Assembly (NCBI GenBank): GCA_964385525.1
Contig: CAYLPM010000199.1
Location: forward strand, 1-40,565
DNA: 40,565 bases
Direction: 5' to 3'
Source of the DNA: an uncultured Gemmatimonadaceae bacterium
GTDB lineage: Bacteria; Gemmatimonadota; Gemmatimonadetes; Gemmatimonadales; Gemmatimonadaceae
Positions 1 through 40,323 of this stretch are shown piece by piece. Both the position numbers and the translations under genes were made by a program. The notes under the pieces were generated by a model. It did not search any database. It was not told the origin of the DNA and saw only the letters and a list, made by a program, of their open reading frames with translations. Within the stretch, counting starts at the first letter, position 1. Every line of letters begins with the position of its first letter.

Positions 1-945
1 GGCCGGATCTTCCTCGCCGAGGCCAACCAGTGGCCTCCCGATGTGCGGCCCTACCTCGGCGACGGCGACGAGTGCCACATGGCGTTCCACTTCCCGCTCA
101 TGCCCCGCATGTACATGGCGCTGCGCAAGGAGGACCGGACGCCGATCATCGAGATCCTCGCCCGCACGCCGGAGATCCCCAACGAGTGCCAGTGGGCGAT
201 CTTTCTCCGCAACCACGATGAGCTCACGCTCGAGATGGTGACGGACGAGGAGCGGGACTACATGTACACCGAGTACGCGCGCGATCCCCGCATGCGCATC
301 AACGTCGGCATCCGCCGCCGGCTCGCGCCGCTGCTCGACAATGGGCGCCGGCAAATCGAGCTCATGAACGCTCTCCTCTTCTCGATGCCGGGGACGCCGA
401 TCGTCTATTACGGCGACGAGATCGGCATGGGCGACAACATCTATCTCGGCGATCGCAACGGCGTCCGTACCCCGATGCAGTGGTCGGCCGACCGCAACGC
501 CGGCTTCTCGGAGGCGGACAGCGCGGCGCTCTACAGCCCGCTGATCATCGATCCGCCATACGGCTACCAGGGGATCAACGTCGAGGCGCAGGAGCGGACG
601 CAGACCTCGCTGTTGCGGTGGACGCGGCGGATCATTCAGCTCCGCAAGCAGTATCGGGCGTTCGCGCGCGGCCGCTTCGAGCCGCTGCACCCCCACAACC
701 GGCGCGTACTCGTCTTCATCCGCTGCCTCGACGACGAGACGATCCTGTGCGTGAGCAACCTCTCGCGCTACGCGCAGTTCGTCGAGCTCGACCTGAGCCG
801 CTTCAACGGGTGGACGCCGATCGAACTGTGGAGCAGGTCGCACTTCCCGAAGATCGGGGAACTGCCCTATCTCCTCACCATGGGCCCACACGGATTCTAC
901 TGGTTCAAGCTCGAGCCGCCCGGGTCCGACGTGCCGGAGGAGTGA
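1..945 (+). CDS. treS: Trehalose synthase / maltose alpha-D-glucosyltransferase (GH13), C-terminal ~314 aa; 5' end cut by the window edge
   Basis: Frame 1 is open from nt 1 (GRIFLAEANQWPPDVRPYLGDGDECHMAFHFPLMPR...). The listed ORF 43..945 is only its Met-initiated part. LRNHDELTLEMVTDEERDYMY and GTPIVYYGDEIGMGDN are typical TreS blocks. The TGA stop at 943-945 shares 1 nt with the next ATG. Confidence 0.93.
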   Translation, partial: GRIFLAEANQWPPDVRPYLGDGDECHMAFHFPLMPRMYMALRKEDRTPIIEILARTPEIPNECQWAIFLRNHDELTLEMVTDEERDYMYTEYARDPRMRINVGIRRRLAPLLDNGRRQIELMNALLFSMPGTPIVYYGDEIGMGDNIYLGDRNGVRTPMQWSADRNAGFSEADSAALYSPLIIDPPYGYQGINVEAQERTQTSLLRWTRRIIQLRKQYRAFARGRFEPLHPHNRRVLVFIRCLDDETILCVSNLSRYAQFVELDLSRFNGWTPIELWSRSHFPKIGELPYLLTMGPHGFYWFKLEPPGSDVPEE

Positions 946-9012: not shown

Positions 9013-9020
9013 ACCGGTGA

Positions 9021-9046
9021 GGGAACGGCGCTGACTGGCCGTTCCC
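9021..9046 (+). terminator. GC-rich hairpin just after glgB (9-bp stem GGGAACGGC / GCCGTTCCC, 8-nt loop), no T-tract
   Basis: Read directly: gggaacggc-gctgactg-gccgttccc, 9 nt after the glgB stop. The right arm recurs at 9056-9064, so alternative pairings are possible. Confidence 0.3.
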
Positions 9047-9076
9047 GCGGTTCCCGCCGTTCCCGCGGTTCCCGTT
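9041..9076. repeat. Tandem 9-bp repeat GTTCCCGCN, three full units plus one degenerate unit
   Basis: gttcccgcg gttcccgcc gttcccgcg gttcccgtt, read directly in the 133-bp glgB-malQ spacer. Confidence 0.85.
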
Positions 9077-9145
9077 CCGGCCCCTCGTGAGATCGAGGGC
9101 GGCCCCGCACTTGCCAGTGCCCAAAGCCTCGCTCCCCACTCCTTC

Positions 9146-11376: not shown

Positions 11377-11380
<4 letters not shown>
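9146..11380 (+). CDS. malQ: 4-alpha-glucanotransferase (amylomaltase, GH77), long form with an N-terminal domain and a basic C-terminal tail
   Basis: GITANLYTLRSARNWGVGDLEDLARLL, RIDHVMGLFRQFWIP, VVGEDLGTVPPEV and TANTHDMPTIAGFW are GH77 blocks. At 744 aa it resembles the long actinobacterial-type MalQ. Confidence 0.92.
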
Positions 11381-14316
<2,936 letters not shown>

Positions 14317-14404
14317 CCTTCTAGCGTGCAACCGGTCGACCGCTCATTCGTCAAGAGCGGTAGCGGGCCGGAGCACCTGGTGATAGCGTGAATATCAGGC
14401 TCAT

Positions 14405-14437
14405 GCGCGCCGAGGTCCCTCGCGCGCTTTCGGTTTT
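14405..14437 (+). terminator. Intrinsic-terminator-like or attenuator-like hairpin plus T-tract between treY and the phosphorylase gene
   Basis: gcgcgc(c)gag-gtcc-ctcgcgcgc, followed immediately by tttcggtttt. It is oriented for the + strand, ~90 nt after the treY stop and ~60 nt before the ATG at 14500. Confidence 0.45.
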
Positions 14438-14499
14438 CACGTGCGCCAATTCTGCGACCGGGGGCACCACGCCCGGTCCTGCACTGCTAGAGGACTCCC

Positions 14500-16230
14500 A
14501 TGAACTTCGCAGCGGACACGACCATCGCGTACTTCTCCATGGAGATGTGCCTCAACGAGGCGCTCCCGACCTACAGCGGCGGTCTCGGTGTGCTGGCGGG
14601 CGACACCTTGCGGTCCGGCGCCGATCTGGGTGTGCCGATGATCGGGGTGACACTCCTGCACCGGAAGGGCTACTTCGTCCAGAAGCTCGATCCTCAGGGG
14701 AACCAGACCGAGACCCCGGCCGTCTGGGATCCGGCCAGTCTGCTCGAGCCGATGGAGCCGACGGTGACGGTCGAGATCGAGGGCCGCCGCGTGGAGATCC
14801 GTGCCTGGCGCTTCCTCGTCCGCGGCAGCGGCGGCCACGAGGTGCCTGTCTATCTGCTCGACACCGCTCTGCCCTCCAACTCCGCGTTCGACCAGACGAT
14901 CACGGATACGCTGTACGGCGGCGACTTCCACTACCGGCTGTGTCAGGAGGTCGTGCTCGGGATGGGCGGCGCGGCGATGCTGCGTGCGCTCGGATACGAG
15001 GGCGACATCATCCATCACATCAACGAGGGCCACGCCTCCCTTCTCACACTGTGCCTGCTCGAGCGCCGGCTCGGCACGCGCGGGGCGTGGGAGATGAACG
15101 ACGCCGACATCGACGCGGTGCGCCGTCAGACGGTCTTCACGACCCACACACCGGTGCCGGCGGGGCACGACAAGTTCCTGCCGGAGCTCGCGCGCCAGGT
15201 GCTCGGGCAGGCGAGGATGGACGTGCTCGAGCGTGCGCGCGCGCTCGACGGCGGGACGCTCAACATGACGCATCTCGCGCTGCGCTTCGCGCGCTACGTG
15301 AACGCGGTCGCAATGCGCCACCAGGATGTCTCGCGCGAGATGTTCCCCGGCGTGCCGATCGATGCCGTGACGAACGGCGTGCACGCCGTGACCTGGACCT
15401 CGGAATCCTTTCGCGCGCTGTTCGACCGATACATTCCGGAGTGGCGGCACGACAACCTCTATCTCCGCTACGCGGGGAAGATCCCGCTCGACGAGATTCG
15501 CGAGGCGCACCGCGAGTCGAAGCGCGCCCTGTTCGCCGAGATCGAGCGGCGCACGTCGTCGACGTTCGATCCGGCGGTGATGACGATCGGCTTCGCGCGT
15601 CGGTCGACGCCGTACAAGCGCGCGGATCTGATCTTCACCGATCTCGACCGGCTCAAGGCCGTGACGCGACACGTCGGCGCGCTGCAGATCGTGTTCGCGG
15701 GCAAGGCCCACCCGCGCGACGACTTCGGCAAGGGACTGATCAAGCGCATCTTCGAGGCGTCGGCCGCCCTCGGCACCGCGCTGCGCGTGGTCTACCTCGA
15801 GAACTACGACATGCGCCTCGGGCACATGCTGACGTCGGGGGTGGACCTCTGGCTCAACAACCCGCTGCGACCACTGGAGGCGAGCGGCACGAGCGGGATG
15901 AAGGCCGCGCTCAACGGTGTCCCGAGCGCCAGCGTGCTCGACGGCTGGTGGATCGAGGGCCACATCGAGGGCGTCACCGGCTGGTCGATTGGCCGCGACG
16001 ATCCGCTCCCGCAGGATCCCTCGTCGGACGTGTTCGACCTGTATGCCAAGCTCGAGCAGCGGATCCTGCCGCTCTACTACGGCATGCCATACGCTTGGGC
16101 CGAGATGATGCGCCACGCGATCGCGATCAACGGTTCCTGCTTCAACACGCAGCGGATGCTGATGCAGTATCTGCGCAATGCGTACTTTCCGCCTGGCGGC
16201 ATCATGGCGGCAGAGGAAGTCGCGGTCTGA
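14500..16230 (+). CDS. glgP: Alpha-glucan (maltodextrin/glycogen) phosphorylase, short GT35 alpha-glucan phosphorylase family
   Basis: GAGGA-type RBS (ctagaggactcccATG). YFSMEMCL..PTYSGGLGVLAGDTLRSGADLGVPMIGVTLLHRKGYF, and the PLP-lysine block EASGTSGMKAALNG. Confidence 0.92.
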   Translation: MNFAADTTIAYFSMEMCLNEALPTYSGGLGVLAGDTLRSGADLGVPMIGVTLLHRKGYFVQKLDPQGNQTETPAVWDPASLLEPMEPTVTVEIEGRRVEIRAWRFLVRGSGGHEVPVYLLDTALPSNSAFDQTITDTLYGGDFHYRLCQEVVLGMGGAAMLRALGYEGDIIHHINEGHASLLTLCLLERRLGTRGAWEMNDADIDAVRRQTVFTTHTPVPAGHDKFLPELARQVLGQARMDVLERARALDGGTLNMTHLALRFARYVNAVAMRHQDVSREMFPGVPIDAVTNGVHAVTWTSESFRALFDRYIPEWRHDNLYLRYAGKIPLDEIREAHRESKRALFAEIERRTSSTFDPAVMTIGFARRSTPYKRADLIFTDLDRLKAVTRHVGALQIVFAGKAHPRDDFGKGLIKRIFEASAALGTALRVVYLENYDMRLGHMLTSGVDLWLNNPLRPLEASGTSGMKAALNGVPSASVLDGWWIEGHIEGVTGWSIGRDDPLPQDPSSDVFDLYAKLEQRILPLYYGMPYAWAEMMRHAIAINGSCFNTQRMLMQYLRNAYFPPGGIMAAEEVAV

Positions 16231-17346: not shown

Positions 17347-19086
17347 CTATCCCAGCGCCGGATGCCGGACGTGAAAATCCGTCGCCCGCTGGTACGCGCT
17401 CGCGACCGCCAGCAGCTTCGCCTCCTCGTACAGCCCGCCGAGAAAGGTGATCGACACCGGCGTGCCGTTCTCGCGGAAGCCGTTGGGGAGGATCACCGCC
17501 GGATGGCCCGTGAGGTTGGTCGCCGTGAGCTGAGCGCCCGAGGTTGGCGTGATGATGACGTCGACCGTCGAGAACAGCGCCGCCCACGCCTCGAGCGCGA
17601 GCGTGCGCGCGCGGTTCGCGTTGATGTACTCCACGGCGGGGATGAAGCGCGCGGTGCGGAATGTGTTCGGCCACGCGCCCCGACCTTGTTGCGCCAACAG
17701 ATCATCACGCCCGGACCGCGTGAGCTCGTCGAAGGCCGCCGCGGCCTCGGCGCTGAGCACGAGCCGCATGGCACCATAGTTCAGGTCCGGTATCTCGACC
17801 GGGACCAGCTCCACGCCGAGCCCGCGCAGCACGGCGAGGGAGGCGTCGTCGAACGCCTGCTGCGCGTACTCGCGATCGAACGCGCTGCGCAGGTAGCCGA
17901 CGCGGATCGAGCGCAGCGGGACGGTAGCATCCCACGTGAACGGCGCGTTCACCGCCGATCGGTCGCGCCCATCGGCGCCGTGAATGGCGTCGAGCACCAT
18001 CGCGCAATCCTCCACGCTCCGGCAGATCGGCCCGATCTTGTCCATCGTCCACGACAGCGCCATCGCGCCGGTTCGCGGCACGCGTCCGTAGGTCGGGCGC
18101 AGCCCGGTCGTCCCGCACCGCGTCGACGGCGAGGAGATCGAGCCGAGCGTTTCCGTGCCGATCGCGAAGCCGACGAGCCCGGCCGCGGTGGCCGCGGCGG
18201 ATCCGGCCGATGATCCACTCGAGCCCTGCTCGACGCGCCACGGATTCTTGGTCTGTCCGCCGAACCAGGTGTCCCCCTGCGCAAGCTCGCCGAGGGTGAG
18301 CTTGGCGACCAGCACCGCGCCGGCCGCATCGAGCCGCTTCACGACCTCGGCATCCTCGTCGAACCGCTGTTCGCGATAGGGCGTCGTGCCCCACGTCGTC
18401 GGATGCCCCGCGACGGCGAGCAGATCCTTCGCGCCCCACGGGATGCCGTGGAGGGGTCCGCGAAGGCGTCCAGCCGCGATCTCCGAATCCGCCTCACGTG
18501 CCTGGCGCAACGCGCGCTCCGGCGTCAGCGTGACGACGCACTGGAGCACCGAATCCAATCGCTCGAGCCGCCGCAAGTACATCTCGGTGAGGCGCACCGA
18601 GGTCACCTGCCGCTGGCGCACGAGCTCTGACAGCTCGGTCACCGGGAGAAACGCGAGATCCTCGAGGTTCGACGGCACACTGCGGCGCGCGACCGCCGTG
18701 CGCGTCATCCGCCCGCGCGTCGGCGGCGTGTCCGGCGGCGCGGTGCCACCGGGCGGGATCGGGTCGAAGCGTATCGCCGGCGCCACCGCGTTCGGGAGCG
18801 CGATCTCGCGGAGCCCCTCGTACTGCCGCTGATAGTTCTGGAGCCCGCTGAGCATCATCTCCCGCTCCTCGTCGGTGAACGAGAGGCCGGCGATCTCTTC
18901 CGCGCACCTGATCGTCTCGAGCGTGATCTCCGCGGCGCTGACCTCAGCGCTCGCCGCGCCGGCCGCGGGCGGCGCGGCGGTCGTTGCCTGTGACCAGAGC
19001 ACGCCGGGAAGCAGTGTCGCGCCGAGGCCGATGCTCGAGAAGTACGCCATGAAGGCGCGTCGGTCGTAGCGAGTCTGTTCGCTCAT
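17347..19086 (-). CDS. Amidase-signature family amidase with a twin-arginine (Tat) signal peptide
   Basis: N-terminus MSEQTRYDRRAFMAYFSSIGLGATLLPG, i.e. an RRxF Tat motif plus an h-region. AS-family blocks GAKDLLAVAGHPTTWG and GSSGSSAGSAAATAAGLVGFAIGTETLGSISSPS. Confidence 0.9.
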   Translation of the reverse strand: MSEQTRYDRRAFMAYFSSIGLGATLLPGVLWSQATTAAPPAAGAASAEVSAAEITLETIRCAEEIAGLSFTDEEREMMLSGLQNYQRQYEGLREIALPNAVAPAIRFDPIPPGGTAPPDTPPTRGRMTRTAVARRSVPSNLEDLAFLPVTELSELVRQRQVTSVRLTEMYLRRLERLDSVLQCVVTLTPERALRQAREADSEIAAGRLRGPLHGIPWGAKDLLAVAGHPTTWGTTPYREQRFDEDAEVVKRLDAAGAVLVAKLTLGELAQGDTWFGGQTKNPWRVEQGSSGSSAGSAAATAAGLVGFAIGTETLGSISSPSTRCGTTGLRPTYGRVPRTGAMALSWTMDKIGPICRSVEDCAMVLDAIHGADGRDRSAVNAPFTWDATVPLRSIRVGYLRSAFDREYAQQAFDDASLAVLRGLGVELVPVEIPDLNYGAMRLVLSAEAAAAFDELTRSGRDDLLAQQGRGAWPNTFRTARFIPAVEYINANRARTLALEAWAALFSTVDVIITPTSGAQLTATNLTGHPAVILPNGFRENGTPVSITFLGGLYEEAKLLAVASAYQRATDFHVRHPALG

Positions 19087-19190
19087 GGCTGGCCAGGGGA
19101 GAGGAGGGAGGGGTGGTGTGGGTCCAGCGCGCTCCGGGTCCGGATATACTGCTGCAGGGCGCGCGCGGCTTCAATGCCTATCTTACCGGA

Positions 19191-20672
19191 ATGCTTCCCT
19201 CGGAGCCCGTTCCCACCGCGCTGCTGCTCGCGACCATCGGCGTGCTGATGACGCTGAGCGTCCTGTTCAGCCGGGCCTCGGGTCGCATCGGGGTCCCCAT
19301 CGCACTGCTCTTCCTGCTTCTCGGAATGGCGGCCGGCTCCGAGGGGATCGGCGGACTCGAGTACGACGACTACGCGTTCACCTTCCGCCTGGGGACGATC
19401 GCGCTCGCGCTCATCCTGTTCGACGGCGGACTGAACACGCCGCTGACCGCCGTCAGGCGCGTGTTCGGGCCGGCGATCGTGCTCGCCACGGTCGGCGTAG
19501 CCGGCACCGCCGCGATGATGGCGTTTGGCGCGAATCTCCTGGGATTCTCGTGGCCAGTTGCGTTGCTGCTGGGCGCCGTGGTGTCGTCGACCGATGCCGC
19601 GGCCGTCTTCCTCGTGCTGCGCGGCTCGGGCATCAGCCTCAAGAAACGCGTCGGGAGCACGCTCGAGCTGGAGTCCGGACTCAACGATCCGCTGGCGATC
19701 ATCCTCACCGTTTCCCTCACCGGTGCGATTCTCGGCATCGGTCCCGCGGTCGGCTGGCCGCTCGTCGGGGGCATTCTCCTCCAGCTCGGCGTCGGGCTGG
19801 TCGGTGGCGTCGTGCTCGGATACGCGGCGGTCGCGCTCCTGTCGCGCGTCCGGCTGCAGGCCGGCGGACTGTATCCCGTACTCACGCTGGCCGTCGCCTT
19901 CCTCGCGTTCAGTCTGCCGACGCTCCTGCTCGGCAGCGGATTTCTCGCCGTCTACGTCGCGGCGGTGGTGATCGGGAACGCGAAGCTGCCGTACCGCGGC
20001 GGCATCCTGCGCGTGCACGACGCGATGGCGTGGTTCAGTCAGATCGTGATGTTCCTCGTGCTGGGGCTGCTCGTGTATCCGTCGCAGCTGTTCGACGTCG
20101 CGGCGGCGGGCCTCGGCCTCGCGCTCTTCCTTGCCTTCGTCGCGCGTCCGGTCGTGGTCATGCTCTGTCTCGCGCCGTTCCGCTACCCGATACGCGAGGT
20201 CGCGTACGGTGCCTGGGTCGGGCTGCGCGGCGCCGTTCCGATCATCCTCGCGACGTATCCGATTCTCGCGCAGGTGCCGGGTGGGCAGCGGATGTTCCAC
20301 ATCGTTTTCTTCGTCGTCGTCGTGAACGCCCTCGTTCCCGGCGGTACCGTGCGCTGGGTGACGCGCTGGCTCGACCTCGAGGCGCACGAGCCGCCCCCGC
20401 CGCCGGCGGTGCTGGAGATCAACTCGATCAAGGTGCTGAGCGGCGACATTCACTCGTTCTTCATCGATCCCGCGGTCGCGGTCGCTGGCATGCCCATCCA
20501 GGAGCTGCCGTTTCCGCCGGGATCCTCGGTGCTGCTGATCGTTCGCGGCGACGAGCTCATCGCGCCCAAGGGCTCGACCATCCTGCAGCCGGGTGATCAC
20601 GCCTATCTCTTCGCGCCTCCCGAGGAGGCGGACTTTCTGCGGCTGATGTTCGGCAGGTCGCAGGGCGAGTGA
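19191..20672 (+). CDS. nhaP2: K+/H+ (cation/proton) antiporter, CPA1 NhaP2/CvrA type, with a C-terminal TrkA-C (RCK_C) domain
   Basis: I prefer the ATG at 19191 (MLPSEPVPTALLLATIGVLMTLSV...) within listed ORF 19113..20672, whose GTG start adds non-membrane residues. The protein is multi-TM, with GLNDPLAIILT. The C-terminal GSSVLLIVRGDELIAPKGSTILQPGDHAYLF is a TrkA-C fold. Confidence 0.88.
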   Translation: MLPSEPVPTALLLATIGVLMTLSVLFSRASGRIGVPIALLFLLLGMAAGSEGIGGLEYDDYAFTFRLGTIALALILFDGGLNTPLTAVRRVFGPAIVLATVGVAGTAAMMAFGANLLGFSWPVALLLGAVVSSTDAAAVFLVLRGSGISLKKRVGSTLELESGLNDPLAIILTVSLTGAILGIGPAVGWPLVGGILLQLGVGLVGGVVLGYAAVALLSRVRLQAGGLYPVLTLAVAFLAFSLPTLLLGSGFLAVYVAAVVIGNAKLPYRGGILRVHDAMAWFSQIVMFLVLGLLVYPSQLFDVAAAGLGLALFLAFVARPVVVMLCLAPFRYPIREVAYGAWVGLRGAVPIILATYPILAQVPGGQRMFHIVFFVVVVNALVPGGTVRWVTRWLDLEAHEPPPPPAVLEINSIKVLSGDIHSFFIDPAVAVAGMPIQELPFPPGSSVLLIVRGDELIAPKGSTILQPGDHAYLFAPPEEADFLRLMFGRSQGE

Positions 20673-20723
20673 GCGAAGCGCCAGGACTCGATTCCCCCCG
20701 CCCGGCGAGTTAGCTTGCGCCGC

Positions 20724-21230
20724 ATGCCCAAGGGTCTCTTCGAGTCGCTCCCCGATTCCTCGCGCGTCTGGGTTTTCGGGAGCGAGCACCCGGTCACCGA
20801 CGTCGCCGCCGAGCGGTTGCTCGAGCGCGTGGATGCTTTTCTGGAGAGCTGGGCGGCGCACGGCGCGCCTCTCCGGTCGGGACGCGACTGGCGCGAGCAC
20901 CGGTTCCTGACGATCGCGGTGGATCAGTCGACGGCCGGCGCGTCCGGCTGCTCGATCGATGGTCTGTTCCGCATCCTGCGCGAGACCGAGGCGCTGGTGG
21001 GGACGACGCTCGTCGGCGGTGGCCGCGTGTACTATCGCGAGTCGGACGGTTCGGTCGTCTCGTCCACGCGCGAGCTGTTCGCGGCGCTCGGCGTCGCTGG
21101 TGAGGTGGATGCGCAGACGCGAGTGTTCGATACGACGGTGCAGACCCTCGGCGAGTGGCGCGAGCGGTTCGAGACCTCACTCGCGAGCTCGTGGCACGCG
21201 CAGCTGGTGGAGGCGGAACTGAAGCGCTGA
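20724..21230 (+). CDS. Conserved protein of unknown function, from a family I recall being mislabelled ABC transporter ATPase in Bacteroidota
   Basis: The listed ORF starts at TTG 20715; the in-frame ATG at 20724 gives MPKGLFESLPDSSRVWVFGS. Blocks FLESWAAHGAPL and AGASGCSIDGLFR match my memory of that family. There is no Walker motif. Confidence 0.65.
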   Translation: MPKGLFESLPDSSRVWVFGSEHPVTDVAAERLLERVDAFLESWAAHGAPLRSGRDWREHRFLTIAVDQSTAGASGCSIDGLFRILRETEALVGTTLVGGGRVYYRESDGSVVSSTRELFAALGVAGEVDAQTRVFDTTVQTLGEWRERFETSLASSWHAQLVEAELKR

Positions 21231-31545: not shown

Positions 31546-34239
31546 CTACTGAGCGCGCATGGTGATGGCCGGATCGATGCGCGCGGCCCGAAGTGCCGGA
31601 ATCCAGCACGCACCGATCCCGATCGCGCCCATCATCGCCGCCACGCCGATGAGCGTGGCCGGGTCGTGCGGCGCGACACCGAACAGCAGTCCGCGAATGG
31701 ACTGCGCGGCGACCCAGGCGCCGCCAACACCCAGCACGAGGCCGATCGCCAGCAGCACGCCCCCTTCACCCAGGATCATCCGCTGGACCCGGCCGCCGTC
31801 CGCGCCGAGGCTCATCCGGATGCCGATCTCGTTGGTGCGCGCGCTCACCGAGAACGCCAGGACGCCGGCAATCCCCACCGCTGCGACGACGACGGCCAAT
31901 ATCCCGAACGACGAGATGAGTGCCGCGTTCAGGCGCCGGGGAGAGATGCTGCGGTCCTTGTACTGCTCGATCGTCATCACGTTCTCGATCGGCGCCGTCG
32001 GCGCGATGCGCCGCACGATACGCGTCGCCGCGGGGATCAGTGCCGCGACGTTGCTGTCGGCGCGAATCACCAGCCCGCCGCCCATCGCCAGCATCTGCGT
32101 GAACGGCATGAACACGACGGCACTCGGCTCGGCGTCCAGCCCACCGTCACGCGTGTTGCCGGTGACGCCGACGATCGTGCGCCAATCGGCGCTGATCGGC
32201 GTGAAGCGCAGGACTTCGCCCGTCCACGCGATCCGCTTGCCGACCGGATCTTCGCCGGGGAACATCCGGTCGGCGAGAAACCGGTTGAGGATCACGACCT
32301 TCTCGGAGTTGACGCGGTCGGTGATTGAGAACGTGCGACCCTGAAGCAGCGGAATCCCCGCCGCGCGAAAGAACTCGGGACCGGCGGTGCGCAGCTCGGC
32401 ACGCGGCAGCGCTTCGCCGACGGCCGGAGATCTGCCTTCGACCTTGACGTCGAACCGCACGTCCGATGCACGCAGCGGCATGGGCGAACCCACACCGACC
32501 TCGATGACACCGGGGAGCGCCGCCATCGCGCGACGCATCTGCTCGTACCGCTCCTTGGCCGTGATGTCGGCCGAGGGCTCGAAGAGCAACTCGGTCGGGG
32601 TCAGGAGGGGCACCTGCATCGTGAGGATCTCCTCGGCCCGGAGGCCGGTGTCCACGTCCGCGAGACGGAGCATCGTCCGGGTCAGCAGTCCGGCGCTCGC
32701 GAGCAGTACCACCGAGACCGCGACCTGCACGACGACGAGCGCACGCTGGAGCCGGTGTTTCCCGAGGCTTCCGCTCACTCGCTGCGCACCGGCCAGGATC
32801 CGGGACGCGAAGCGACCCTCGCGCGGCAGCGATGCCAGGAACGACAGCATCAGCCCGACGCTCACCGACAGCGCGAGCATGAATCCGAAGACCGTTCCGT
32901 CGAGCCGGATCTCACCCGCCCGCGGCGAGTAGCGCTCGGCGAGCGACGTCAGCAGCCCGACGCCGCCTGAGGCGATCGCCATTCCGAGTGCCGCGCCGAG
33001 GAAGGCCAGCAGGAGATTCTCCACCAGCAGCAGCCGGCGCAGGCGTGCCACACCGGCGCCGAGCGCCGCGCGGATCACGAGCTCGTGCTCCCGGCGCACA
33101 CCGCGCATGAGTGTCAGGTTGGCGACGCTCGACACCGAGATGATCAGGACGAACGCGGCGGCGCCCATCAGGAGCCACAGCGTGAGGCGTGCGCGCTCGC
33201 CGAGCACCTCGTGAAACGGGATGACCGCGACGCGTGGGTTGCTCGCGGGGTCATAGGCTTCCTGGTACTGGCTGCGCAGCCGTGCATACACGGCGTCGAC
33301 CTCGGCCCGCGCCTGCTCGATGCTGGTGCCGCCTCCGATGCGGGCGACGACCTCGGTCATGCGATGCGTCCGGCCTTCCACCATCATCGCGCTCAGGTGA
33401 TGATCGCTGTTCACCATGTTGAGCAGCGCATCGATGCGATCCGGGAAGAACGGCGCTGGCTGGAGCACGCCGATCACGGTCACCCATTTCTTGTCCAGCA
33501 TGAGTTGACGGCCGACGATGCCCGAGTCGCCACCGAAGCGCTGCCTCCAGAAGTCGTGCGTCAGCACGGCCACGCGCGGCACACCCTGTCCATCATCGCT
33601 CGGCTGCGTGACCCGGCCGAGAACCGGCGCGAGTCCCATGACCTCGAAGTAGTTGCCGGTGACGAGACCGACACTGATGCGGGTGGCTCCCTCATCGGCC
33701 TGGTAGATCATGGACCACGGGGAGTACTCGGCGATGCCGGCGAGCGACGGAACGCCCTCGCGAAGGTCGCGAACCTCCGGAACCGAGAAGTTCAGGTTCG
33801 CGCCGCCTGCAACGTCGCTCGACTGTCGGAGGTAGACGAGCCGGTCGCCGTCGCGATGGGGCAGCGGCTTGAGGAGCACGCCCCGCACGACGGTGAAGAT
33901 CGCCGTGTTGGCGCCAATGCCGAGCGCCAGTGTGACCACGACGACGAGGGTGAACACGGGGCTTCGTCGCAGGATGCGCACCGCATACCGGACGTCGGAG
34001 GCGAGCGTCTCGATCCACGGCAACCCGCGCTGGTCTCGAACCGCCTCGGCCGCCTGTGTGAGGCCGCCTGCCGCCAGCCGCGCCCTGCGTCGTGCATCGG
34101 CGGGAGACATTCCGCGCCGGATGTACTCCGCCGTCTCCATCTCGAGGTGGGCTTCCAGTTCCTCGCGGAGATCGTCGTCCGCCCGGCGCCCGGTGAAGAC
34201 GCCGGCGATGCGCGCGAGCGCGGCGCGTACGTGTCTCAT
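31546..34239 (-). CDS. ADOP-family duplicated permease (MacB/FtsX-like, two FtsX modules), 897 aa
   Basis: The ATG at 34239 overlaps the padR TGA (ATGA). The N-terminus is MRHVRAALARIAGVFTGRRADDDLREELEAHLEMETAEYIRRGMSPADARRRARLAAGG...DVRYAVRILRRSPVFT. The C-terminus is RAARIDPAITMRAQ. Both are hallmark ADOP (TIGR03434-type) features. The listed 1334-aa ORF is read-through upstream of the true start. Confidence 0.9.
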   Translation of the reverse strand: MRHVRAALARIAGVFTGRRADDDLREELEAHLEMETAEYIRRGMSPADARRRARLAAGGLTQAAEAVRDQRGLPWIETLASDVRYAVRILRRSPVFTLVVVVTLALGIGANTAIFTVVRGVLLKPLPHRDGDRLVYLRQSSDVAGGANLNFSVPEVRDLREGVPSLAGIAEYSPWSMIYQADEGATRISVGLVTGNYFEVMGLAPVLGRVTQPSDDGQGVPRVAVLTHDFWRQRFGGDSGIVGRQLMLDKKWVTVIGVLQPAPFFPDRIDALLNMVNSDHHLSAMMVEGRTHRMTEVVARIGGGTSIEQARAEVDAVYARLRSQYQEAYDPASNPRVAVIPFHEVLGERARLTLWLLMGAAAFVLIISVSSVANLTLMRGVRREHELVIRAALGAGVARLRRLLLVENLLLAFLGAALGMAIASGGVGLLTSLAERYSPRAGEIRLDGTVFGFMLALSVSVGLMLSFLASLPREGRFASRILAGAQRVSGSLGKHRLQRALVVVQVAVSVVLLASAGLLTRTMLRLADVDTGLRAEEILTMQVPLLTPTELLFEPSADITAKERYEQMRRAMAALPGVIEVGVGSPMPLRASDVRFDVKVEGRSPAVGEALPRAELRTAGPEFFRAAGIPLLQGRTFSITDRVNSEKVVILNRFLADRMFPGEDPVGKRIAWTGEVLRFTPISADWRTIVGVTGNTRDGGLDAEPSAVVFMPFTQMLAMGGGLVIRADSNVAALIPAATRIVRRIAPTAPIENVMTIEQYKDRSISPRRLNAALISSFGILAVVVAAVGIAGVLAFSVSARTNEIGIRMSLGADGGRVQRMILGEGGVLLAIGLVLGVGGAWVAAQSIRGLLFGVAPHDPATLIGVAAMMGAIGIGACWIPALRAARIDPAITMRAQ

Positions 34240-34580
34240 CGTGCCTCCCGTCGCGGCGCGAGAAATGCAGCGATCAGATCGGCGGTCTGATGCCACTCGC
34301 GGGCTTCGCGCTCCAGCTGCTTGCGCCCGGCGACGGTGAGCGAGTAGAACTTCGCTCGACGATTGTTCTCGGACTGTCCCCACTCCGCGGTGATGAAGCC
34401 CTCCTGTTCGAGCTTGAGGAGCGCGGGGTACAGCGTGCCGTAGTTCAGCGTCAGACGGTTCTTGCTCGTCTCCTCGATGCGGCGCGCGACGCCGTAACCG
34501 TGCAGCGGCCCGAGGACCTCGAGGGTCTTGAGTATCATCAGGGCGAGCGTGCCCTGCTTCACGTCCAGCTTGTCCGCCAT
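34236..34580 (-). CDS. PadR-family transcriptional regulator
   Basis: Winged-helix block ALMILKTLEVLGPLHGYGVARRIEE...GTLYPALLKLEQEGFITAEWGQSENNRRAKFYSLT. Confidence 0.93.
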   Translation of the reverse strand: MADKLDVKQGTLALMILKTLEVLGPLHGYGVARRIEETSKNRLTLNYGTLYPALLKLEQEGFITAEWGQSENNRRAKFYSLTVAGRKQLEREAREWHQTADLIAAFLAPRREAR

Positions 34581-34585
34581 GGTAC

Positions 34586-34610
34586 CGTCCTATGGGATGC
34601 CCATACGACG
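34586..34610. promoter_or_regulatory. Inverted repeat (11-bp arms, 1 mismatch, 3-nt spacer) 6-30 nt upstream of the padR ATG; candidate PadR operator or leader hairpin
   Basis: cgtccTATGGG-atg-CCCATAcgacg, read directly. On the minus strand it overlaps the AGGA RBS of padR. Confidence 0.35.
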
Positions 34611-35040
34611 GTAATGTCCGGACCCGGATCGCGCAATAGCGGGCGTGCGGTGCGGGAGGTTCCCTGACTTGTTCGGCGCGCTTGCGCGGACTACGTTCTC
34701 GTCGGCGACGTCCCACCGGCAAGGGTGTGCGGATGATGATGCGTGTTCCTCCAGGCAGCAGGCTCCGATTCGACGCGCCAGGCTCGAGCAGTTCGCCGGC
34801 GGTTGCGCGCAGCGCGCGATCGACTCGCGGCCGCGGTCGGCTCGAGCCCGGTGGCCGTCCCGGCGAGGCTCGCACGTGCCACCGCAGGGCCGCAACGAAC
34901 GGCCTTTCCGGATCGTGACGGGCGTCTCGTTCACGACCGCCGGTACGCGTATCGTCGAGTCGATCGCGGCGCTTCGGCAGACGCACGAATCGACGCTGGA
35001 CACGGTCGTCGTCGAGTCGCCGCTCCCTGGCGGAGCGGCG

Positions 35041-36918
35041 GTGTTCGTTCGCTTCCTGCTCAATACCGTTCCGTCCTGGGTCCAGCTCGGCGGGATCCTC
35101 GTGGGCGCGATCCTGGGCGTTCTCGTCCTCGTGATGCTCGTCCGCCGCCGCGGTGCGATCGGCGCGTGGGTCACGGCGCAAAGCCGCGCCGCCAAGATCG
35201 CGCTCGCGGTCGTCGCCGTGGTGCTCCTCGCGGGCGTCGCGACTGCGGGCGCCGCGACCTGGAACTACACACAGCACAGCAATGATTTCTGCACGGGGTG
35301 TCACGTGATGAGCCCCGCGTTCGAGCAATTCTCGGGTACCGAGAACAAGCACGCCGAGCTGTCGTGCCACGCCTGCCACCAGCAGCCCCTGTCCGCCAGC
35401 GCGCGCCAGCTCTACCTGTGGGTCGCCGAGCGCCCGGAGGGGATCGGCGAACACGCTCCAGTCGACAATCGCGTGTGCGAGACCTGCCACGCGACCGCCG
35501 ACACGGCGCAGTGGCAGCGCGTCGTGACCACGGCGGGGCACCGGGTGCACCTCGAATCGGATTCGGCGTCACTGAGGGACCTGCAGTGCGTCAGGTGCCA
35601 CGGGGTGGAGGTGCACCGCTTCCGGCCCGTGGCCGAGACGTGCGGTCAGAGCGGCTGCCACGGCACGGAGGACACCGAGATCGTCCTCGGCCGGATGGCC
35701 AGTCAGACCATGGCCCATTGCGCGAGCTGTCACGAGTTCACCGCACCCGTGCCCGCGCTCGCCACTCGCGATTCAGCGTCCGGGACGCTGGTGCCCGGCA
35801 GGGTGCAGTGCATGGGGTGCCACGAGATGCGTGCGGTCCTGGCGGAGTTCGACGAAGGCAGGGATCCGCATGGCGGAAAGTGCGGTTCGTGTCACAATCC
35901 GCATACGCAGACGACGCCGGCAGCGGCGAGCGAGTCGTGCGCGACCTGCCACACGGACTGGCGCGATGAGCCGTTCCACGTGAGTGCGAACCACCGGCGC
36001 GTCGGCGAACGCTGTCTCACGTGCCACCTGCCGCACCAGGCGAAGGTCGACGCGAGCGACTGCCAGGCCTGTCACGAGAGTGTCCGCGCGCGCGGCACCC
36101 TCCGACCGCCGCTGCCCTTTGATAGCAGTGCCGCACTGCGGCGGAGCGATACCACCGCCGCCATGCCGGTGCCGACCGCGGCCCCGGTCGGTCCGTACCA
36201 TGCCGCGCCGGCGCCGTCGCACCGCGGCGGCCCGTTCGTGCCCGATCCCGGCGATGACGCGATGCCGGCCGTTGACGCTCATTTTCCTCGCCCGGCAGTC
36301 GCCGATACGTTTCCGCACGAGCGTCACGTGACGCTCTCGTGCCTCGTGTGTCACCGGACGGGAGCGGGCCAGGGTCGCCTCACCTTCGAGCGTCCTCGCG
36401 GGTGCGACATCTGCCACCACCAGGCGCCGCGGCAAGCCCGGTGCGAGGCGTGCCACCGCACCGACGAGTACGAGCGTCCCGCTCCGCGGACGATCGCCAT
36501 CACGGTGGCCGGTCATCCGCCCCGGCCGCGAAGCGTCGACTTCCTGCACGCACGACACGCCGAGCGGCCGTGCCTCGAGTGCCATACCGAGCCGGTCTCG
36601 CTCGCGCTCGCGCCGGAGAAGGCGCAGTGCACCGACTGCCACGCCGAGCACCATGCCGTCGGCCTGAGTTGTTCATCGTGCCATCCGATCGCCGAACCAC
36701 GACTTGCCCACCCGACGCTCGAGAGCGCGCACCAGCGCTGCGACGTCTGTCACACGCGCGCGACAGTGGAGCAGCTGACGCCCACGCGCGCGTTCTGCAG
36801 TACCTGCCATGCGTCGTCGCACACCAACCACTACGAGCCCCGCGAGTGCACGGTGTGCCACCTGCTCGCGGAACCGGCGGTCTATCGGTCGGAGCTCGTC
36901 ACTCCGCCACCAGGGTGA
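35041..36918 (+). CDS. Membrane-anchored multihaem c-type cytochrome (19 CxxCH + 1 CxxxxCH): NapC/NirT-like N-module, Pro-rich linker, c7/c3-type C-module
   Basis: The ORF is open from GTG 34645. I prefer GTG 35041 because GGAG lies 5 nt upstream and two TM helices follow immediately. GTG 34915 is also possible. The first motif, FCTGCHVMSPAFEQF, resembles the NapC/NirT CxxCHxM signature. FPHERHVTLSCLVCH and FLHARHAERPCLECH resemble cytochrome c7/c3 motifs. Confidence 0.85.
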   Translation: MFVRFLLNTVPSWVQLGGILVGAILGVLVLVMLVRRRGAIGAWVTAQSRAAKIALAVVAVVLLAGVATAGAATWNYTQHSNDFCTGCHVMSPAFEQFSGTENKHAELSCHACHQQPLSASARQLYLWVAERPEGIGEHAPVDNRVCETCHATADTAQWQRVVTTAGHRVHLESDSASLRDLQCVRCHGVEVHRFRPVAETCGQSGCHGTEDTEIVLGRMASQTMAHCASCHEFTAPVPALATRDSASGTLVPGRVQCMGCHEMRAVLAEFDEGRDPHGGKCGSCHNPHTQTTPAAASESCATCHTDWRDEPFHVSANHRRVGERCLTCHLPHQAKVDASDCQACHESVRARGTLRPPLPFDSSAALRRSDTTAAMPVPTAAPVGPYHAAPAPSHRGGPFVPDPGDDAMPAVDAHFPRPAVADTFPHERHVTLSCLVCHRTGAGQGRLTFERPRGCDICHHQAPRQARCEACHRTDEYERPAPRTIAITVAGHPPRPRSVDFLHARHAERPCLECHTEPVSLALAPEKAQCTDCHAEHHAVGLSCSSCHPIAEPRLAHPTLESAHQRCDVCHTRATVEQLTPTRAFCSTCHASSHTNHYEPRECTVCHLLAEPAVYRSELVTPPPG

Positions 36919-36949: not shown

Positions 36950-37255
36950 CTAGATGACCTTGGCGAGCTCGCCGAGCGGCGCAATGGCGACTCCGTCCTG
37001 CACACACCACCACGACCCGCCACGGTACCAGAGCGGGTGGTTGGCATGCCGGGGGCAGGCGGGCCAGGTCGTATCGACGAACGTGTCATGGAAGTGCTGC
37101 TGCACGTCGTTGACCAGCTTCTCGCCGGTGTCCGCGATGCCGAGCTCCCGGACATCCGCGGCCGTGTCTTCAATGAGGCGATCGTACGACGCGCCGAGTG
37201 TAGTCGACACGTCGCGCTCGAGGAGCGGGATCACCTGTGCCAGGTCAGGCGGCAT
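36950..37255 (-). CDS. Hypothetical small protein (101 aa) with a WPACPRH...HPLW...WWC motif
   Basis: ATG start, high GC3, convergent with the cytochrome gene. No recognised family. Confidence 0.6.
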   Translation of the reverse strand: MPPDLAQVIPLLERDVSTTLGASYDRLIEDTAADVRELGIADTGEKLVNDVQQHFHDTFVDTTWPACPRHANHPLWYRGGSWWCVQDGVAIAPLGELAKVI

Positions 37256-37716: not shown

Positions 37717-38232
37717 ATGCACGGAGGCCTGTACGTCGTGATGGGCGTCGCTGGTGCGGGCAAGAGCGCCATCGGCTCCGCCCTCGCGCGGGCCCTGGAC
37801 GTCGCCTTCGTCGAGGGAGATGCATTCCACCCGCCGGAGAACATCGCGAAGATGTCCCTCGGCGTTCCTCTCACCGACCACGATCGCGCGGGATGGCTCC
37901 GCGCGCTCGCGAGCCGCATCGCTGAGGCGAGTCACGCCGGCACCGGCCTCGTCGTGGCCTGCTCGGCGCTCAAGCGGGCGTATCGCGACATCCTGCGTGC
38001 GGCAGCTCCCGAAGGCGACTTGCAGTTCGTCTTCCTGCAGGGCCCCCGGCCCGTGCTCGCCGAGCGGCTGTCCGGGCGTCGCGGCCACTTCATGCCGCCC
38101 GCGCTGCTCGACAGCCAGCTCGCGACGCTCGAACCACCAACGCCCGATGAAGAGGCCTGGGTCTGCGACATCACGCAGTCGCCGGACGAGATCCTCGCCG
38201 GCCTGCTGACGCGCGTGCGCCATGACGTCTGA
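37717..38232 (+). CDS. gntK: Gluconokinase
   Basis: ATG at 37717 within listed ORF 37546..38232. The P-loop is VMGVAGAGKS. GDAFHPPENIAKMSLGVPLTDHDRAGWL and ACSALKRAYRDIL are GntK/IdnK blocks. Confidence 0.9.
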   Translation: MHGGLYVVMGVAGAGKSAIGSALARALDVAFVEGDAFHPPENIAKMSLGVPLTDHDRAGWLRALASRIAEASHAGTGLVVACSALKRAYRDILRAAAPEGDLQFVFLQGPRPVLAERLSGRRGHFMPPALLDSQLATLEPPTPDEEAWVCDITQSPDEILAGLLTRVRHDV

Positions 38233-39571
38233 CGCCCGCCTGCTGCTCTACGCGGTGGTGGCCGTCGTCGCGCTAATCCTCCTCATCGCCCGTGCCAAAT
38301 GGCACCCGTTCATCGCGCTCGTCGTCGTCTCCCTGGGCATGGGCGTGCTAGCCGGGATGCCGCCGACCGAGATCGCCGGCGCGTTCCAGTCCGGCGTCGG
38401 CAACGCTCTCGGCTTCGTCGCGGTCGTGCTCGGCCTCGGCACGATGCTCGGCAAGATCATGGCGGAATCGGGCGCGGCCACGCGGATTGCGGAAACGCTG
38501 ATCCGCGCGTTCGGCGAGCAGCGCGTGCACTGGGCGATCACGGTCGTCGCGTTCATCGTCGGCATCCCGGTGTTCTTCCAGGTCGGATTCGTGCTGCTCA
38601 TCCCGCTCGTGTTCACGATCGCCCGCCGGACCGGGATGTCACTCGTGAAGATCGGCATTCCGCTCGTCGCCGGGCTGTCTGTCGTGCACGGGATGCTGCC
38701 GCCGCATCCGGCGGCCATGCTCGCCGTCGGCGCGTACGAGGCGGACCTCGGGCTGACGATCCTGTATGGGCTGCTCGTCGGCTTGCCGACGGCCGCACTC
38801 GCCGGTCCCGTGTTCGCGACCTGGGTCGCGCCGCACATCACCCTGCGCCGTGAGAATCCGATGGCGGCCCAGCTCGAGGGATCGTCCGGGTCCTCCGACG
38901 AGATGCCCGGATTCGCCATCTCGGTCTTCACGGTCCTGATCCCCGTGATCCTGATGCTGCTCGCGAGCGCGGCGCAGGTGCTGCTCCCGGAGACGAATCC
39001 GGCGCGCGCGACGCTGTCGTTCGTCGGGCATCCGATCGTCGCCCTGCTCCTCGCGCTGCTCTTCTCCTTCTGGTCGCTGGGGCGCGCCCGGCGATTCACG
39101 CGCGATCAGCTACTCGCCTTCTGCAACGAGTGTCTCGCGCCCACCGCGGCCATCATCCTCGTCATCGGTGCAGGCGGCGGCTTCAACGGGGTGCTGGTGG
39201 GGAGCGGCGTCGGGCGCGCGGTGGCGTCGATGGCCGAAGGCGCGCAGCTCTCGCCGCTGCTGCTGGCCTGGCTCGTCGCCGCTATGATCCGCGTCGCCAC
39301 CGGTTCGGCGACGGTCGCGATGATCACGAGCGCCGGCATCGTCGCGCCGATCGCGCTCGCCGCACCGGACACGAGCCCGGAGCTCCTCGTGCTGGCGACC
39401 GGTGCCGGATCGCTCGTGCTGTCGCACGTCAACGACGCCGGGTTCTGGCTGATCAAGGAGTTCTTCGACATGACTGTCGCGCAGACGCTGAAGACGTGGA
39501 CGGTGGCGGAAACGATCATCGGCGTGGCGGGACTGGCGTTCACCGTGCTGCTCGGCCTGCTGCTCGGATGA
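38222..39571 (+). CDS. gntP: Gluconate:H+ symporter, GntP family
   Basis: Overlaps the gntK end by 11 nt. 449 aa and multi-TM, with WHPFIALVVVSLGMGVLAGMP, GTMLGKIMAESGAA and VLSHVNDAGFWLIKEFF, all typical of GntP permeases. Confidence 0.92.
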   Translation: MTSDARLLLYAVVAVVALILLIARAKWHPFIALVVVSLGMGVLAGMPPTEIAGAFQSGVGNALGFVAVVLGLGTMLGKIMAESGAATRIAETLIRAFGEQRVHWAITVVAFIVGIPVFFQVGFVLLIPLVFTIARRTGMSLVKIGIPLVAGLSVVHGMLPPHPAAMLAVGAYEADLGLTILYGLLVGLPTAALAGPVFATWVAPHITLRRENPMAAQLEGSSGSSDEMPGFAISVFTVLIPVILMLLASAAQVLLPETNPARATLSFVGHPIVALLLALLFSFWSLGRARRFTRDQLLAFCNECLAPTAAIILVIGAGGGFNGVLVGSGVGRAVASMAEGAQLSPLLLAWLVAAMIRVATGSATVAMITSAGIVAPIALAAPDTSPELLVLATGAGSLVLSHVNDAGFWLIKEFFDMTVAQTLKTWTVAETIIGVAGLAFTVLLGLLLG

Positions 39572-40323
39572 GCGCACCCACACTCTGCACCCGGCGACTC
39601 CACATGCGACTACCGGCCCTCCTGCTCGCCCTCTCGCTCGCCTGTACTCCTCGGCCTCCGGCAACCACGTCCGCCGAGTCGGACTGGGAGGACATCACCG
39701 CGCTGCTCGACCCGCGGACGACGCCGGTGTACGAGGGCGACGCGCCCATGTCCTTCGAGTTCCTTCGCGACATGCGGACCGGCGATCCGTTGACGTTGTC
39801 GGCGTATTCGCTCGGTGCGCACAGTGGCACGCACATCGATGCGCCAATGCACTTCATCCGCGACGGCGCGTCGATCGATCGCGTGCCGCTCGACGCGTTG
39901 ATCGGACCGGCCCTCGTGATCGAGATCGCCGATTCGGTGCAGATCATCGATGCCGCGGAGCTCGAGCGTCACCCCTGGCGCGGCGCGGCGCGGGTGCTCT
40001 TCCGCACGAGAAGCTCGGAGCGCGGCTGGATGAGGTCCGCGGCCTTCCACCGGGACTTCGCCTACATTGCGCCCGAGGCGGCGCAGCTGCTCGCGGACGC
40101 CGGTGTGCAGCTCGTCGGGATCGACTACCTCTCCGCCGAGCAGTTCGGTGCTGCGGCGCCGAGGACGCACCAGATCCTGCTGGGTGCGGGCATTCCGATC
40201 GTCGAAGGGTTGTCGCTGGAACAGATCCGCGCCGGCGAGTACGAGCTGATCGTGCTGCCGATCAAGGTCGCGGGACACGAGGGAGCGCCGGCGCGGGCAG
40301 TCTTGCGTGCGCGCGGGCGGTGA
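39568..40323 (+). CDS. Cyclase-family protein (kynurenine formamidase/isatin hydrolase fold) with an N-terminal signal or lipoprotein-like leader
   Basis: ATGA overlap with the gntP stop. The leader is MSAPTLCTRRLHMRLPALLLALSLAC, with an alternative ATG at 39604. The metal motif HSGTHIDAPMHF is diagnostic of the cyclase (PF04199-type) family. The rest of listed ORF 39130.. lies inside gntP. Confidence 0.85.
   Translation: MSAPTLCTRRLHMRLPALLLALSLACTPRPPATTSAESDWEDITALLDPRTTPVYEGDAPMSFEFLRDMRTGDPLTLSAYSLGAHSGTHIDAPMHFIRDGASIDRVPLDALIGPALVIEIADSVQIIDAAELERHPWRGAARVLFRTRSSERGWMRSAAFHRDFAYIAPEAAQLLADAGVQLVGIDYLSAEQFGAAAPRTHQILLGAGIPIVEGLSLEQIRAGEYELIVLPIKVAGHEGAPARAVLRARGR

Follow-up and report, generated by a model that had tools for sequence, protein, structure and literature searches.

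The stretch of DNA considered here, referred to throughout as the window, is a contig of 40,565 nucleotides from an uncultured member of the Gemmatimonadaceae (CAYLPM010000199.1, assembly GCA_964385525.1), and the subject of the analysis is one gene on its forward strand that encodes a membrane-anchored c-type cytochrome with 20 haem-binding motifs. The gene lies within an open reading frame (ORF) listed at 34645..36918 (+), which has 757 codons when counted from its first GTG, and whose translation contains 19 CxxCH motifs together with one CGQSGCH, exactly the set given in an earlier reading of the same DNA (the original prediction). Six-frame translation of the whole window places all 19 CxxCH motifs inside this one ORF. 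Since residue-shuffled versions of the protein contain on average only 0.17 such motifs, and at most 2, this richness is not a by-product of the high G+C content of the window (68-70%).

As to where the gene begins, the frame originally proposed for it stands, but the start does not, and is to be placed about 270 nt further downstream. The G+C content at third codon positions (GC3) in the cytochrome frame reaches the level expected of coding DNA only from approximately 34915-34990 (0.84-0.9 from about 34915), the first 270 or so nucleotides of the ORF carrying no such signal, and the N-termini of homologues (MIGTQFSAVA...AALQQ.H; consensus xIGxxxSAxA...AALQQxH..DSVVVESPLPGG) line up with the product of the GTG at 34915. 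On the strength of these two observations the coding sequence is taken as 34915..36918 (+), most likely comprising 667 amino acids and a stop codon, while the 5' portion of the listed ORF is probably noncoding; all residue numbers given below count from GTG 34915 unless the ORF is specified. For the protein P0001, a twin of the window protein with 98% identity, the gene caller had chosen a GTG equivalent to 34876 (giving 680 amino acids), which may represent an alternative start, yet conservation begins only near 34915. The starts at 34645 and 34669 were ruled out by the GC3 profile and the homologue N-termini; the ATG at 35134 (which would leave a single helix, as in NrfH) was also rejected, the peptide upstream of it being better conserved than the helices themselves. 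With the corrected start the haem density becomes approximately one per 33 residues, rather than the one per 30 quoted previously.

The N-terminal part of the protein contains a conserved peptide at residues 25-57 (DTVVVESPLPGG..VRFLLNTVPSWVQ; 34987..35085, +), picked out by alignment conservation, for which the mean column identity of 0.81 exceeds that of the membrane helices that follow; in an alignment of 74 sequences, to which all statements of invariance made here refer, D29, V33, S35, P36, L37, P38, G40, P53 and Q57 are invariant within it. Two hydrophobic helices had been proposed to lie ahead of the first haem site, FCTGCHVM, and both Kyte-Doolittle analysis (peaks at residues ~61-75 and ~95-108) and AlphaFold modelling (helices 54-77 and 91-121, with a predicted local distance difference test score (pLDDT) above 90 for residues ~60-110) bear this out. 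Membrane helix 1 occupies residues ~58-78 (35086..35148, +), where the 19-residue hydropathy mean reaches 2.9, and is followed by a basic loop (RRRG...SRAAK; 35149..35190, +) that is predicted to be cytoplasmic. Membrane helix 2, at residues ~93-118 (35191..35268, +), aligns with the membrane helix of NrfH and forms an anchor of NrfH type directly before haem 1, its end being just 8 residues before C126. Charged residues number 3 positive and 4 negative in the N-terminal tail, 3 positive and none negative in residues 78-93, and none positive and 2 negative just past helix 2; by the positive-inside rule, one would infer a cytoplasmic loop with both the N-terminal tail and the haem domain in the periplasm.

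Immediately following helix 2 there is a four-haem head (residues 119-240; 35269..35634, +) containing CTGCHVM (haem 1, with Met132), CHACH, CETCH and CVRCH. The original proposal that this represents a quinol-dehydrogenase module of the NapC/NirT type is supported by several lines. The first haem site has the form CxxCHxM, of which C126, C129, H130 and M132 are all invariant. When the head is isolated (178 amino acids) it scores 27.1 bits on the Pfam model PF03264 (Cytochrom_NNT), against a gathering score of 24.1 (expectation value, E, 4e-6), a match that covers only positions 6-73 of the 174 in the model, and 12 of 18 heads taken from across the family match the same model at E<0.01. A profile of the full family, searched against 177,635 PDB sequences, finds as its best match NrfH of Desulfovibrio vulgaris (2j7a_C, E 5.4e-9), and a profile of the head alone finds the same protein (E 5.6e-8), the alignment running from the membrane helix through haems 1-3. 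On these sequence comparisons the head is best described as belonging genuinely to the NapC/NirT/NrfH superfamily, though as a divergent member, and not as an orthologue of NrfH, NapC or CymA. Membership of NrfH proper (the equivalog model TIGR03153) was ruled out, as the score is 21.4 bits against a cut-off of 134.2 and there is no adjacent nrfA, a gene that was found neither in the window nor in those clusters of relatives that were inspected (see below).

The head also serves to place the protein within a wider set. A search with the head against 1.84 billion representatives of clusters formed at 50% identity returned 312 matches at E<=1e-3, of which 161 were at E<=1e-10, and the more distant of these head relatives align with the whole of the 138-position NrfH model at 30-47 bits. 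The proteins fall into size classes having 10-12 haems (~260-325 amino acids), 20 haems (540-700 amino acids, with one or two helices) and 30-34 haems (650-770 amino acids). Representatives of the largest class, found among P0241-P0390 (matches to window positions 35167-35700), carry, behind the head, a long tandem series of CxxCH motifs set close together. The 10-12-haem class has its counterpart in haems 1-11 of the 20-haem protein, whose architecture can therefore be read as that of an 11-haem membrane cytochrome to which a tether and a nine-haem module of c3 type have been added.

The remainder of the protein fits this description. Seven further haems lie at residues 241-395 (35635..36099, +), with motifs CGQSGCH, CASCH, CMGCH, CGSCH, CATCH, CLTCH and CQACH, all invariant, in a block that shows weak similarity to the DmsE family. 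There follows a variable tether rich in Ala, Pro, Ser and Arg (residues 396-465; 36100..36309, +), recognised by its low conservation (column identity 0.48, as against ~0.8 in the haem modules) and by pLDDT values below 50, and across homologues the distance from the His of haem 11 to the first Cys of haem 12 varies from 56 to 136 residues, with a median of 101. The C-terminal nine-haem module (residues 466-655; 36310..36879, +) resembles c3 and nine-haem cytochromes: in a profile search of the PDB it matches nine-haem cytochrome c (1ofw/19hc, E about 4e-5 to 5e-5) and the C-terminus of HmcA. Three Pfam models score above their thresholds, namely PF14522 (Cytochrome_C7, 53.7 vs 24.8), PF14537 (c3_2, 40.6 vs 25) and PF02085 (class III, 26.1 vs 22.9), the first two scoring highest at residues 410-478 of the ORF, in the seven-haem block; the c7/c3-like character originally claimed for the C-terminal part is thus borne out, both by these scores and by the nine-haem match. 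All of the Cys and His residues of the 20 haem motifs are invariant, as are Met132 and 21 additional His residues, which leaves enough spare His to give essentially every haem bis-His ligation. The description of the protein as a long haem wire holds good for the number of motifs; the long and poorly conserved tether after haem 11 may interrupt the chain.

The joining of head and tail in one polypeptide might in principle have reflected a missed stop codon or an assembly error, in which case the two parts would be expected as separate genes elsewhere. This is not what is found: the fusion is kept in all full-length homologues. A search of 5.8 billion clustered proteins with the cytochrome gave 1308 matches, the best 120 of which are all 616-716 amino acids in length, with query coverage of 87-100% and identities of 53-98%. 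Where source names are given for the matches, these are of Gemmatimonadaceae, the proteins being called either "hypothetical protein" or (by JGI) "nitrate/TMAO reductase-like tetraheme cytochrome c subunit" (TMAO, trimethylamine N-oxide). All but one of the homologues (which has 19) have 20 haem motifs, and most have two CX4CH sites, at one of which the sub-lineage containing the window protein has CX2CH instead. In a scan of genomes, taking one for each GTDB species, 318 species representatives encode a relative of the 20-haem cytochrome; the best 80 of these are metagenome-assembled genomes (MAGs) labelled Gemmatimonadales, Gemmatimonadaceae or Gemmatimonadota, except for three contigs binned elsewhere. 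From these comparisons, the 20-haem cytochromes appear as a large uncharacterised family that is essentially confined to the Gemmatimonadales. The three exceptions (L026, L038 and L087) carry the normal cluster in bins labelled Binatia or Vicinamibacterales, for which either mis-binning or horizontal transfer is possible.

On every long contig inspected from the relatives, the same four co-directional genes recur: one for a cytochrome of ~520 residues, then the 20-haem gene, then one for a protein of ~493 residues and one for a further cytochrome of ~490 residues. The ~493-residue gene lies directly downstream of the 20-haem gene in 102 of 106 informative loci, its start often overlapping or closely trailing the stop of the latter, and the ~520-residue gene immediately precedes the 20-haem gene in 95 of 103. 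Of the eight loci that seem to be exceptions, at least five (L017, L041, L047, L081 and L098) do carry it and were set apart only by a distance filter. Of 74 upstream cytochromes, 67 carry a lipobox (e.g. LAGC or LASC) and 71 have nine haem motifs; the protein is weakly similar to the surface nonahaem cytochrome OcwA (6i5b, E 3.7e-6) and to MtrA (6r2q_A), while the downstream cytochrome usually has 16 haem motifs. Two of the loci have a tandem duplication of the nine-haem lipoprotein gene ahead of the 20-haem gene (L041 214-3441; L047 6914-9919), and on another contig a relative with 49% identity, of which only the C-terminal part is present (L127 8-622), has no barrel gene after it and may be either a detached copy or part of some other type of cluster.

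The ~493-residue protein found no match in sequence searches of Pfam, NCBIfam or the PDB. A model built from an alignment of 50 sequences (pLDDT 77.6; predicted template modelling score (pTM) 0.70) shows a signal helix followed by about 22-24 antiparallel strands, and a Foldseek search of the PDB with this model gave 338 matches at E<=1e-3; the 50 of these that were listed are all outer-membrane β-barrels, including MOMP, Occ porins, AlgE, the barrel of the FimD usher and MtrB (6r2q_B, at 1.6e-7). Template modelling scores (TM-scores) for the barrels are mostly 0.3-0.45, as is to be expected between barrels that differ in strand number. A barrel of about 22-24 strands in the outer membrane is thus what the model predicts. 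Taken together with the linkage of the four genes, this implies that the native context of the 20-haem gene is a cluster of porin-cytochrome type, encoding some 45 haems in all. The term "orphan", which had been applied to the gene in the window, is therefore apt for that locus but not for the family, and the associated suggestion that one polypeptide takes over a pathway normally shared among several proteins does not survive, as in the family the protein is one part of a conserved four-gene cluster.

In roughly 30 of 88 loci scanned there is, beside this cluster and usually divergent from it, an operon resembling that for a periplasmic nitrate reductase (L001 1956-8050, L005 1678-7927 and equivalents, assigned using family models). 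It encodes a molybdopterin subunit with a Tat signal, two small cytochromes (one having a faint match to NapB), a 4Fe-4S protein like DsrO/NrfC, a membrane protein like DsrP/NrfD and a Band-7 protein, and in such loci ccmF and ccmH lie beyond it. Its composition recalls a Nap-like reductase in which a quinol module of NrfCD type stands in place of NapC or NapGH. At least one MAG (LejiaD_68_15) has two complete four-gene clusters, each with a Nap-like operon (L015 and L023; JBBDYA010000010 and JBBDYA010000006), their 20-haem proteins being 63% and 61% identical to that of the window; this could reflect real paralogy or a mixed bin.

Such an operon raises the question of whether the 20-haem protein might be a NapC-like hub for periplasmic reduction of nitrogen oxides or other oxyanions, serving an adjacent NapA-like molybdoenzyme or other periplasmic reductases. 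The score of the molybdopterin subunit on the NapA model (732 bits, against a cut-off of 904) and the JGI label attached to some family members are what one might expect on this basis. However, the Nap-like operon has its own quinol-interacting FeS/NrfD pair as well as its own cytochromes, most of the loci scanned have the four-gene cluster but lack a Nap-like operon within 10 kb of it, and the window contains no molybdoenzyme; nor would such a role account for the linked outer-membrane barrel and lipoprotein cytochrome. On this evidence a role as a hub for periplasmic reductases seems distinctly improbable.

At the locus in the window the situation is different from that in the relatives. The gene diverges, as had been noted at the outset, from an operon on the reverse strand consisting of a gene for a PadR-family regulator (34236..34580, -; recognised by PF03551 in the twin locus L007) and, downstream of that, one for an ADOP-type permease (31546..34239, -; identified from its ORF, its coding signal and the twin locus). 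The twin locus is a contig of 6.6 kb from a different metagenome, where a 98%-identical protein (synonymous divergence, dS, 0.03) is encoded in the same PadR/ADOP context, and because the two assemblies are independent an assembly artefact does not explain the isolation of the gene. A neighbour-joining tree links the window protein and its twin first with P0002 (75% identity), which is also detached, in an unrelated context, and then with P0003 and P0005 (69-70%), which have the normal cluster; detachment is therefore a derived state of one small lineage. A scan of metagenomes found no further close relatives of this lineage (>70% identity over the full gene).

It might be supposed that the window copy is a decaying, functionless leftover of a broken cluster, or else an assembly chimera. 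It does stand apart from the neighbours that are present in 102 of the 106 loci, and scans for promoters and terminators around it found no site. Nevertheless, the reading frame is unbroken and has lost none of the 20 haem motifs and none of the residues that are invariant across the family, while the ratio of non-synonymous to synonymous substitution rates (dN/dS) is 0.31 for the window copy against its twin, 0.27 against P0002 (L008) and 0.29 against the clustered P0003, values which match that between the clustered copies P0003 and P0005 (0.32). The detached lineage is, in other words, still under purifying selection, with dN/dS about 0.3. When every protein of the cluster was used as a tblastn query against the window, at E<=1, nothing was found outside the cytochrome ORF and hence no pseudogene remnants of partners; the twin comes from an independent assembly, and the existence of a detached relative at 75% identity in a different context suggests a stand-alone lineage that has been maintained. 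Decay or chimerism must accordingly be regarded as very improbable. Being kept by selection, the window copy presumably has partners whose genes lie elsewhere, or else a soluble acceptor in the periplasm to work with.

The reading that these results are here taken to favour is that the gene product is a functional c-type cytochrome that is anchored to the inner membrane and feeds electrons from quinol into a trans-periplasmic relay of 20 haems; this we consider probable, though by no means assured. In such a scheme haem would be incorporated at the 20 motifs, and helix 2 would hold the head at the periplasmic face of the membrane, where the head, through its CxxCHxM haem 1, would exchange electrons with the quinol pool (the quinone of Gemmatimonas being menaquinone). 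Electrons would then hop along the 11 haems of the membrane-proximal block and pass to the nine-haem c3-like tail on its flexible tether of ~70-100 residues, and the tail might hand them to a partner either by swinging on this tether or while held in a complex. Among the relatives, the nine-haem lipoprotein cytochrome, the barrel and the 16-haem cytochrome would complete an envelope route of porin-cytochrome type, most likely for extracellular electron transfer, with flow through the envelope possible in either direction, towards an extracellular substrate or away from it. The window copy, separated from its cluster, would retain the same head-and-wire chemistry, with partners encoded elsewhere or a soluble acceptor in the periplasm.

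There are several points that weigh against this reading. For the window copy the role in a conduit is extrapolated from its relatives: Pfam scans of the window and tblastn with the cluster partners found no ccm genes, no porin or barrel and no second cytochrome, just as the original prediction had stated. The Nap-like operon in some of the relatives' loci allows a link to nitrogen-oxide respiration. As regards the head, PF03264 applied to the whole protein scores 19.6 bits and so falls below its gathering score, and the low-scoring match to the NrfH model nonetheless spans positions 3-133 of its 138. The MtrA/DmsE decahaem family (TIGR03508) was ruled out, at 36.2 bits against a cut-off of 192.2. 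The tether may break the haem chain between haems 1-11 and 12-20. Structural modelling gives little help, as the AlphaFold2 model of the cytochrome from the 74-sequence alignment (pLDDT 50, pTM 0.36) is confident only for the two membrane helices, and a Foldseek search with it found no match at E<=0.001, the matches listed having TM-scores no higher than 0.06 relative to the model. Finally, no description of a 20-haem cytochrome family of this kind, or of its biochemistry, was found in the literature.

A further possibility is that the same machinery runs in reverse, so that electrons enter from Fe(II), Mn(II) or a mineral outside the cell and the head reduces the quinone pool or feeds an oxidase, as has been proposed for systems of the Mto/CymA type in iron oxidisers. 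Cultured Gemmatimonadaceae are aerobes, which would be compatible with this. Moreover, NapC/CymA-type proteins and porin-cytochrome systems are known or proposed to be bidirectional (PMC6295460; PMC5566968), and an "mto-like" system has been mentioned in passing for a Gemmatimonas-like MAG (PMC6137239). Against these points must be set the energetics, reduction of menaquinone by Fe(II) being uphill, and the fact that neither the window nor the cluster has genes for carbon fixation, a cupredoxin or an oxidase as fixed neighbours; the sequence itself gives no sign of direction. Overall, reversed flow seems unlikely. Returning to the favoured scheme, in which quinol electrons enter the relay, it can be extended to a bolder form, which should be treated as speculative and, on present evidence, somewhat doubtful. 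The Gemmatimonadales would then almost universally carry a trans-envelope conduit of ~45 haems in which a single polypeptide does the work both of CymA, as quinol dehydrogenase, and of MtrA and the periplasmic shuttles, as the wire that spans the periplasm; the tethered nine-haem tail would plug into or dock under the ~24-strand barrel, and the window copy would be a free-standing wire recruited for another acceptor.

Comparison with established systems helps to define what is and is not shared. With NrfH, NapC and CymA (2J7A/2VR0) the protein has in common an anchoring helix directly before a CxxCHxM haem 1 and four haem motifs within ~110 residues; it differs in adding 16 haems, a second N-terminal helix and the conserved N-terminal peptide, and no partner of the NrfA, NapAB or Tor kind was found adjoining the 20-haem gene. 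TorC and DorC are pentahaem proteins of the NapC family, in which an extra C-terminal haem domain docks to the reductase. They therefore offer a precedent for joining a NapC-type head to an additional haem domain through which electrons reach a partner, but TorC adds just one haem, whereas the 20-haem protein adds 16 and a long tether.

Also comparable is ImcH of Geobacter, a multihaem quinol oxidase of the inner membrane in which additional N-terminal helices accompany a segment resembling NapC/NirT, and which functions in extracellular electron transfer (PMC6295460). According to its published description, ImcH has three helices, a CX3CH first motif and 6-10 haems in 495-519 amino acids, and no mtrAB or mtoAB genes were found next to imcH (PMC6295460). 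The 20-haem protein, with two helices, a CX2CH first motif and 20 haems, is by that description not an ImcH, and its relatives, unlike imcH, have a barrel gene immediately downstream.

The order of genes in the relatives (multihaem cytochrome, barrel, lipoprotein or secreted multihaem cytochrome) is that seen in MtrCAB, DmsEF and the Geobacter OmaB-OmbB-OmcB and Ext conduits. In those systems, however, the periplasmic cytochrome associated with the barrel is soluble, having 8-12 haems, and the quinol dehydrogenase (CymA, CbcL or ImcH) is separate, whereas in the 20-haem family the cytochrome encoded beside the barrel gene has its own membrane anchor and a quinol-dehydrogenase-like head. An adjacent barrel gene and a gene for a lipoprotein or extracellular multihaem cytochrome, the two features by which porin-cytochrome systems are recognised, are present in the relatives and absent from the window locus. 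In the PCC3 clusters of iron oxidisers, described by He et al. in 2017, a barrel accompanies haem-rich cytochromes, of which the periplasmic one has a median of 21 haems and is thought to span the periplasm (PMC5566968). These clusters, which occur in Proteobacteria, have repeat-rich, low-complexity cytochromes and a separate five-helix di-haem-b membrane protein as their quinone module (PMC5566968). In the 20-haem family the quinone module is instead the fused NrfH-like head, and assignment to PCC3 was ruled out since neither the window nor the clusters inspected has a gene for the five-helix di-haem-b protein. In none of the systems compared does a quinol-dehydrogenase head continue into a relay of 20 haems whose gene lies directly upstream of that for a barrel.

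Both the membrane quinol dehydrogenases resembling NapC and CymA and the porin-cytochrome conduits are already familiar, in the form of separate proteins joined by soluble shuttles; in this family, by contrast, the quinol module and a 20-haem relay seem to have become one protein, and in relatives the gene for it stands directly before that for the barrel. The head marks a wider superfamily, without a name of its own, with members of 10-12, 20 and 30-34 haems that family databases do not separate. The Gemmatimonadales are an abundant order in soils and are regarded as aerobic heterotrophs. As the family spans hundreds of species of this abundant but poorly understood group, from soils and sediments, it would, if functional, provide a genetic handle on whether these organisms exchange electrons with minerals, humic substances or other cells, and could also be of use in bio-electrochemical engineering as a compact "one-protein" wire for the periplasm. 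Within this family the gene in the window is a real and maintained member, and its isolation is the exception.

There remain the other features of the window. Next to the regulator, an ORF of 1334 amino acids listed at 31546-35550 (-) was rejected as a gene: it is an open frame of the kind that high G+C content produces, and the part of it that extends beyond PadR is antisense to the cytochrome. Convergent with the cytochrome gene there is a gene of 101 amino acids (36950..37255, -) that belongs to no Pfam family and is also found after the twin copy (L007 4738-5043), and further downstream lie sugar-acid genes, one like that for gluconokinase and one for a GntP-like permease, so that the cytochrome gene stands between these and the PadR/ADOP operon. 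The first 16 kb or so of the window is given over to glycogen and maltodextrin genes, the region 1-16230 containing five ORFs of the alpha-amylase family (including one like GlgB at 6499-9012), MalQ (9035-11380) and a phosphorylase-like gene (14491-16230), and the remainder is occupied by housekeeping genes up to the PadR/ADOP operon. The AT skew is strongly negative at 19000-21000 (-0.25 to -0.30) and at 38000-40000 (about -0.2), regions that coincide with genes on the + strand for a Na+/H+ exchanger and for the GntP-like permease, and this probably reflects the T-rich codons used for hydrophobic residues.

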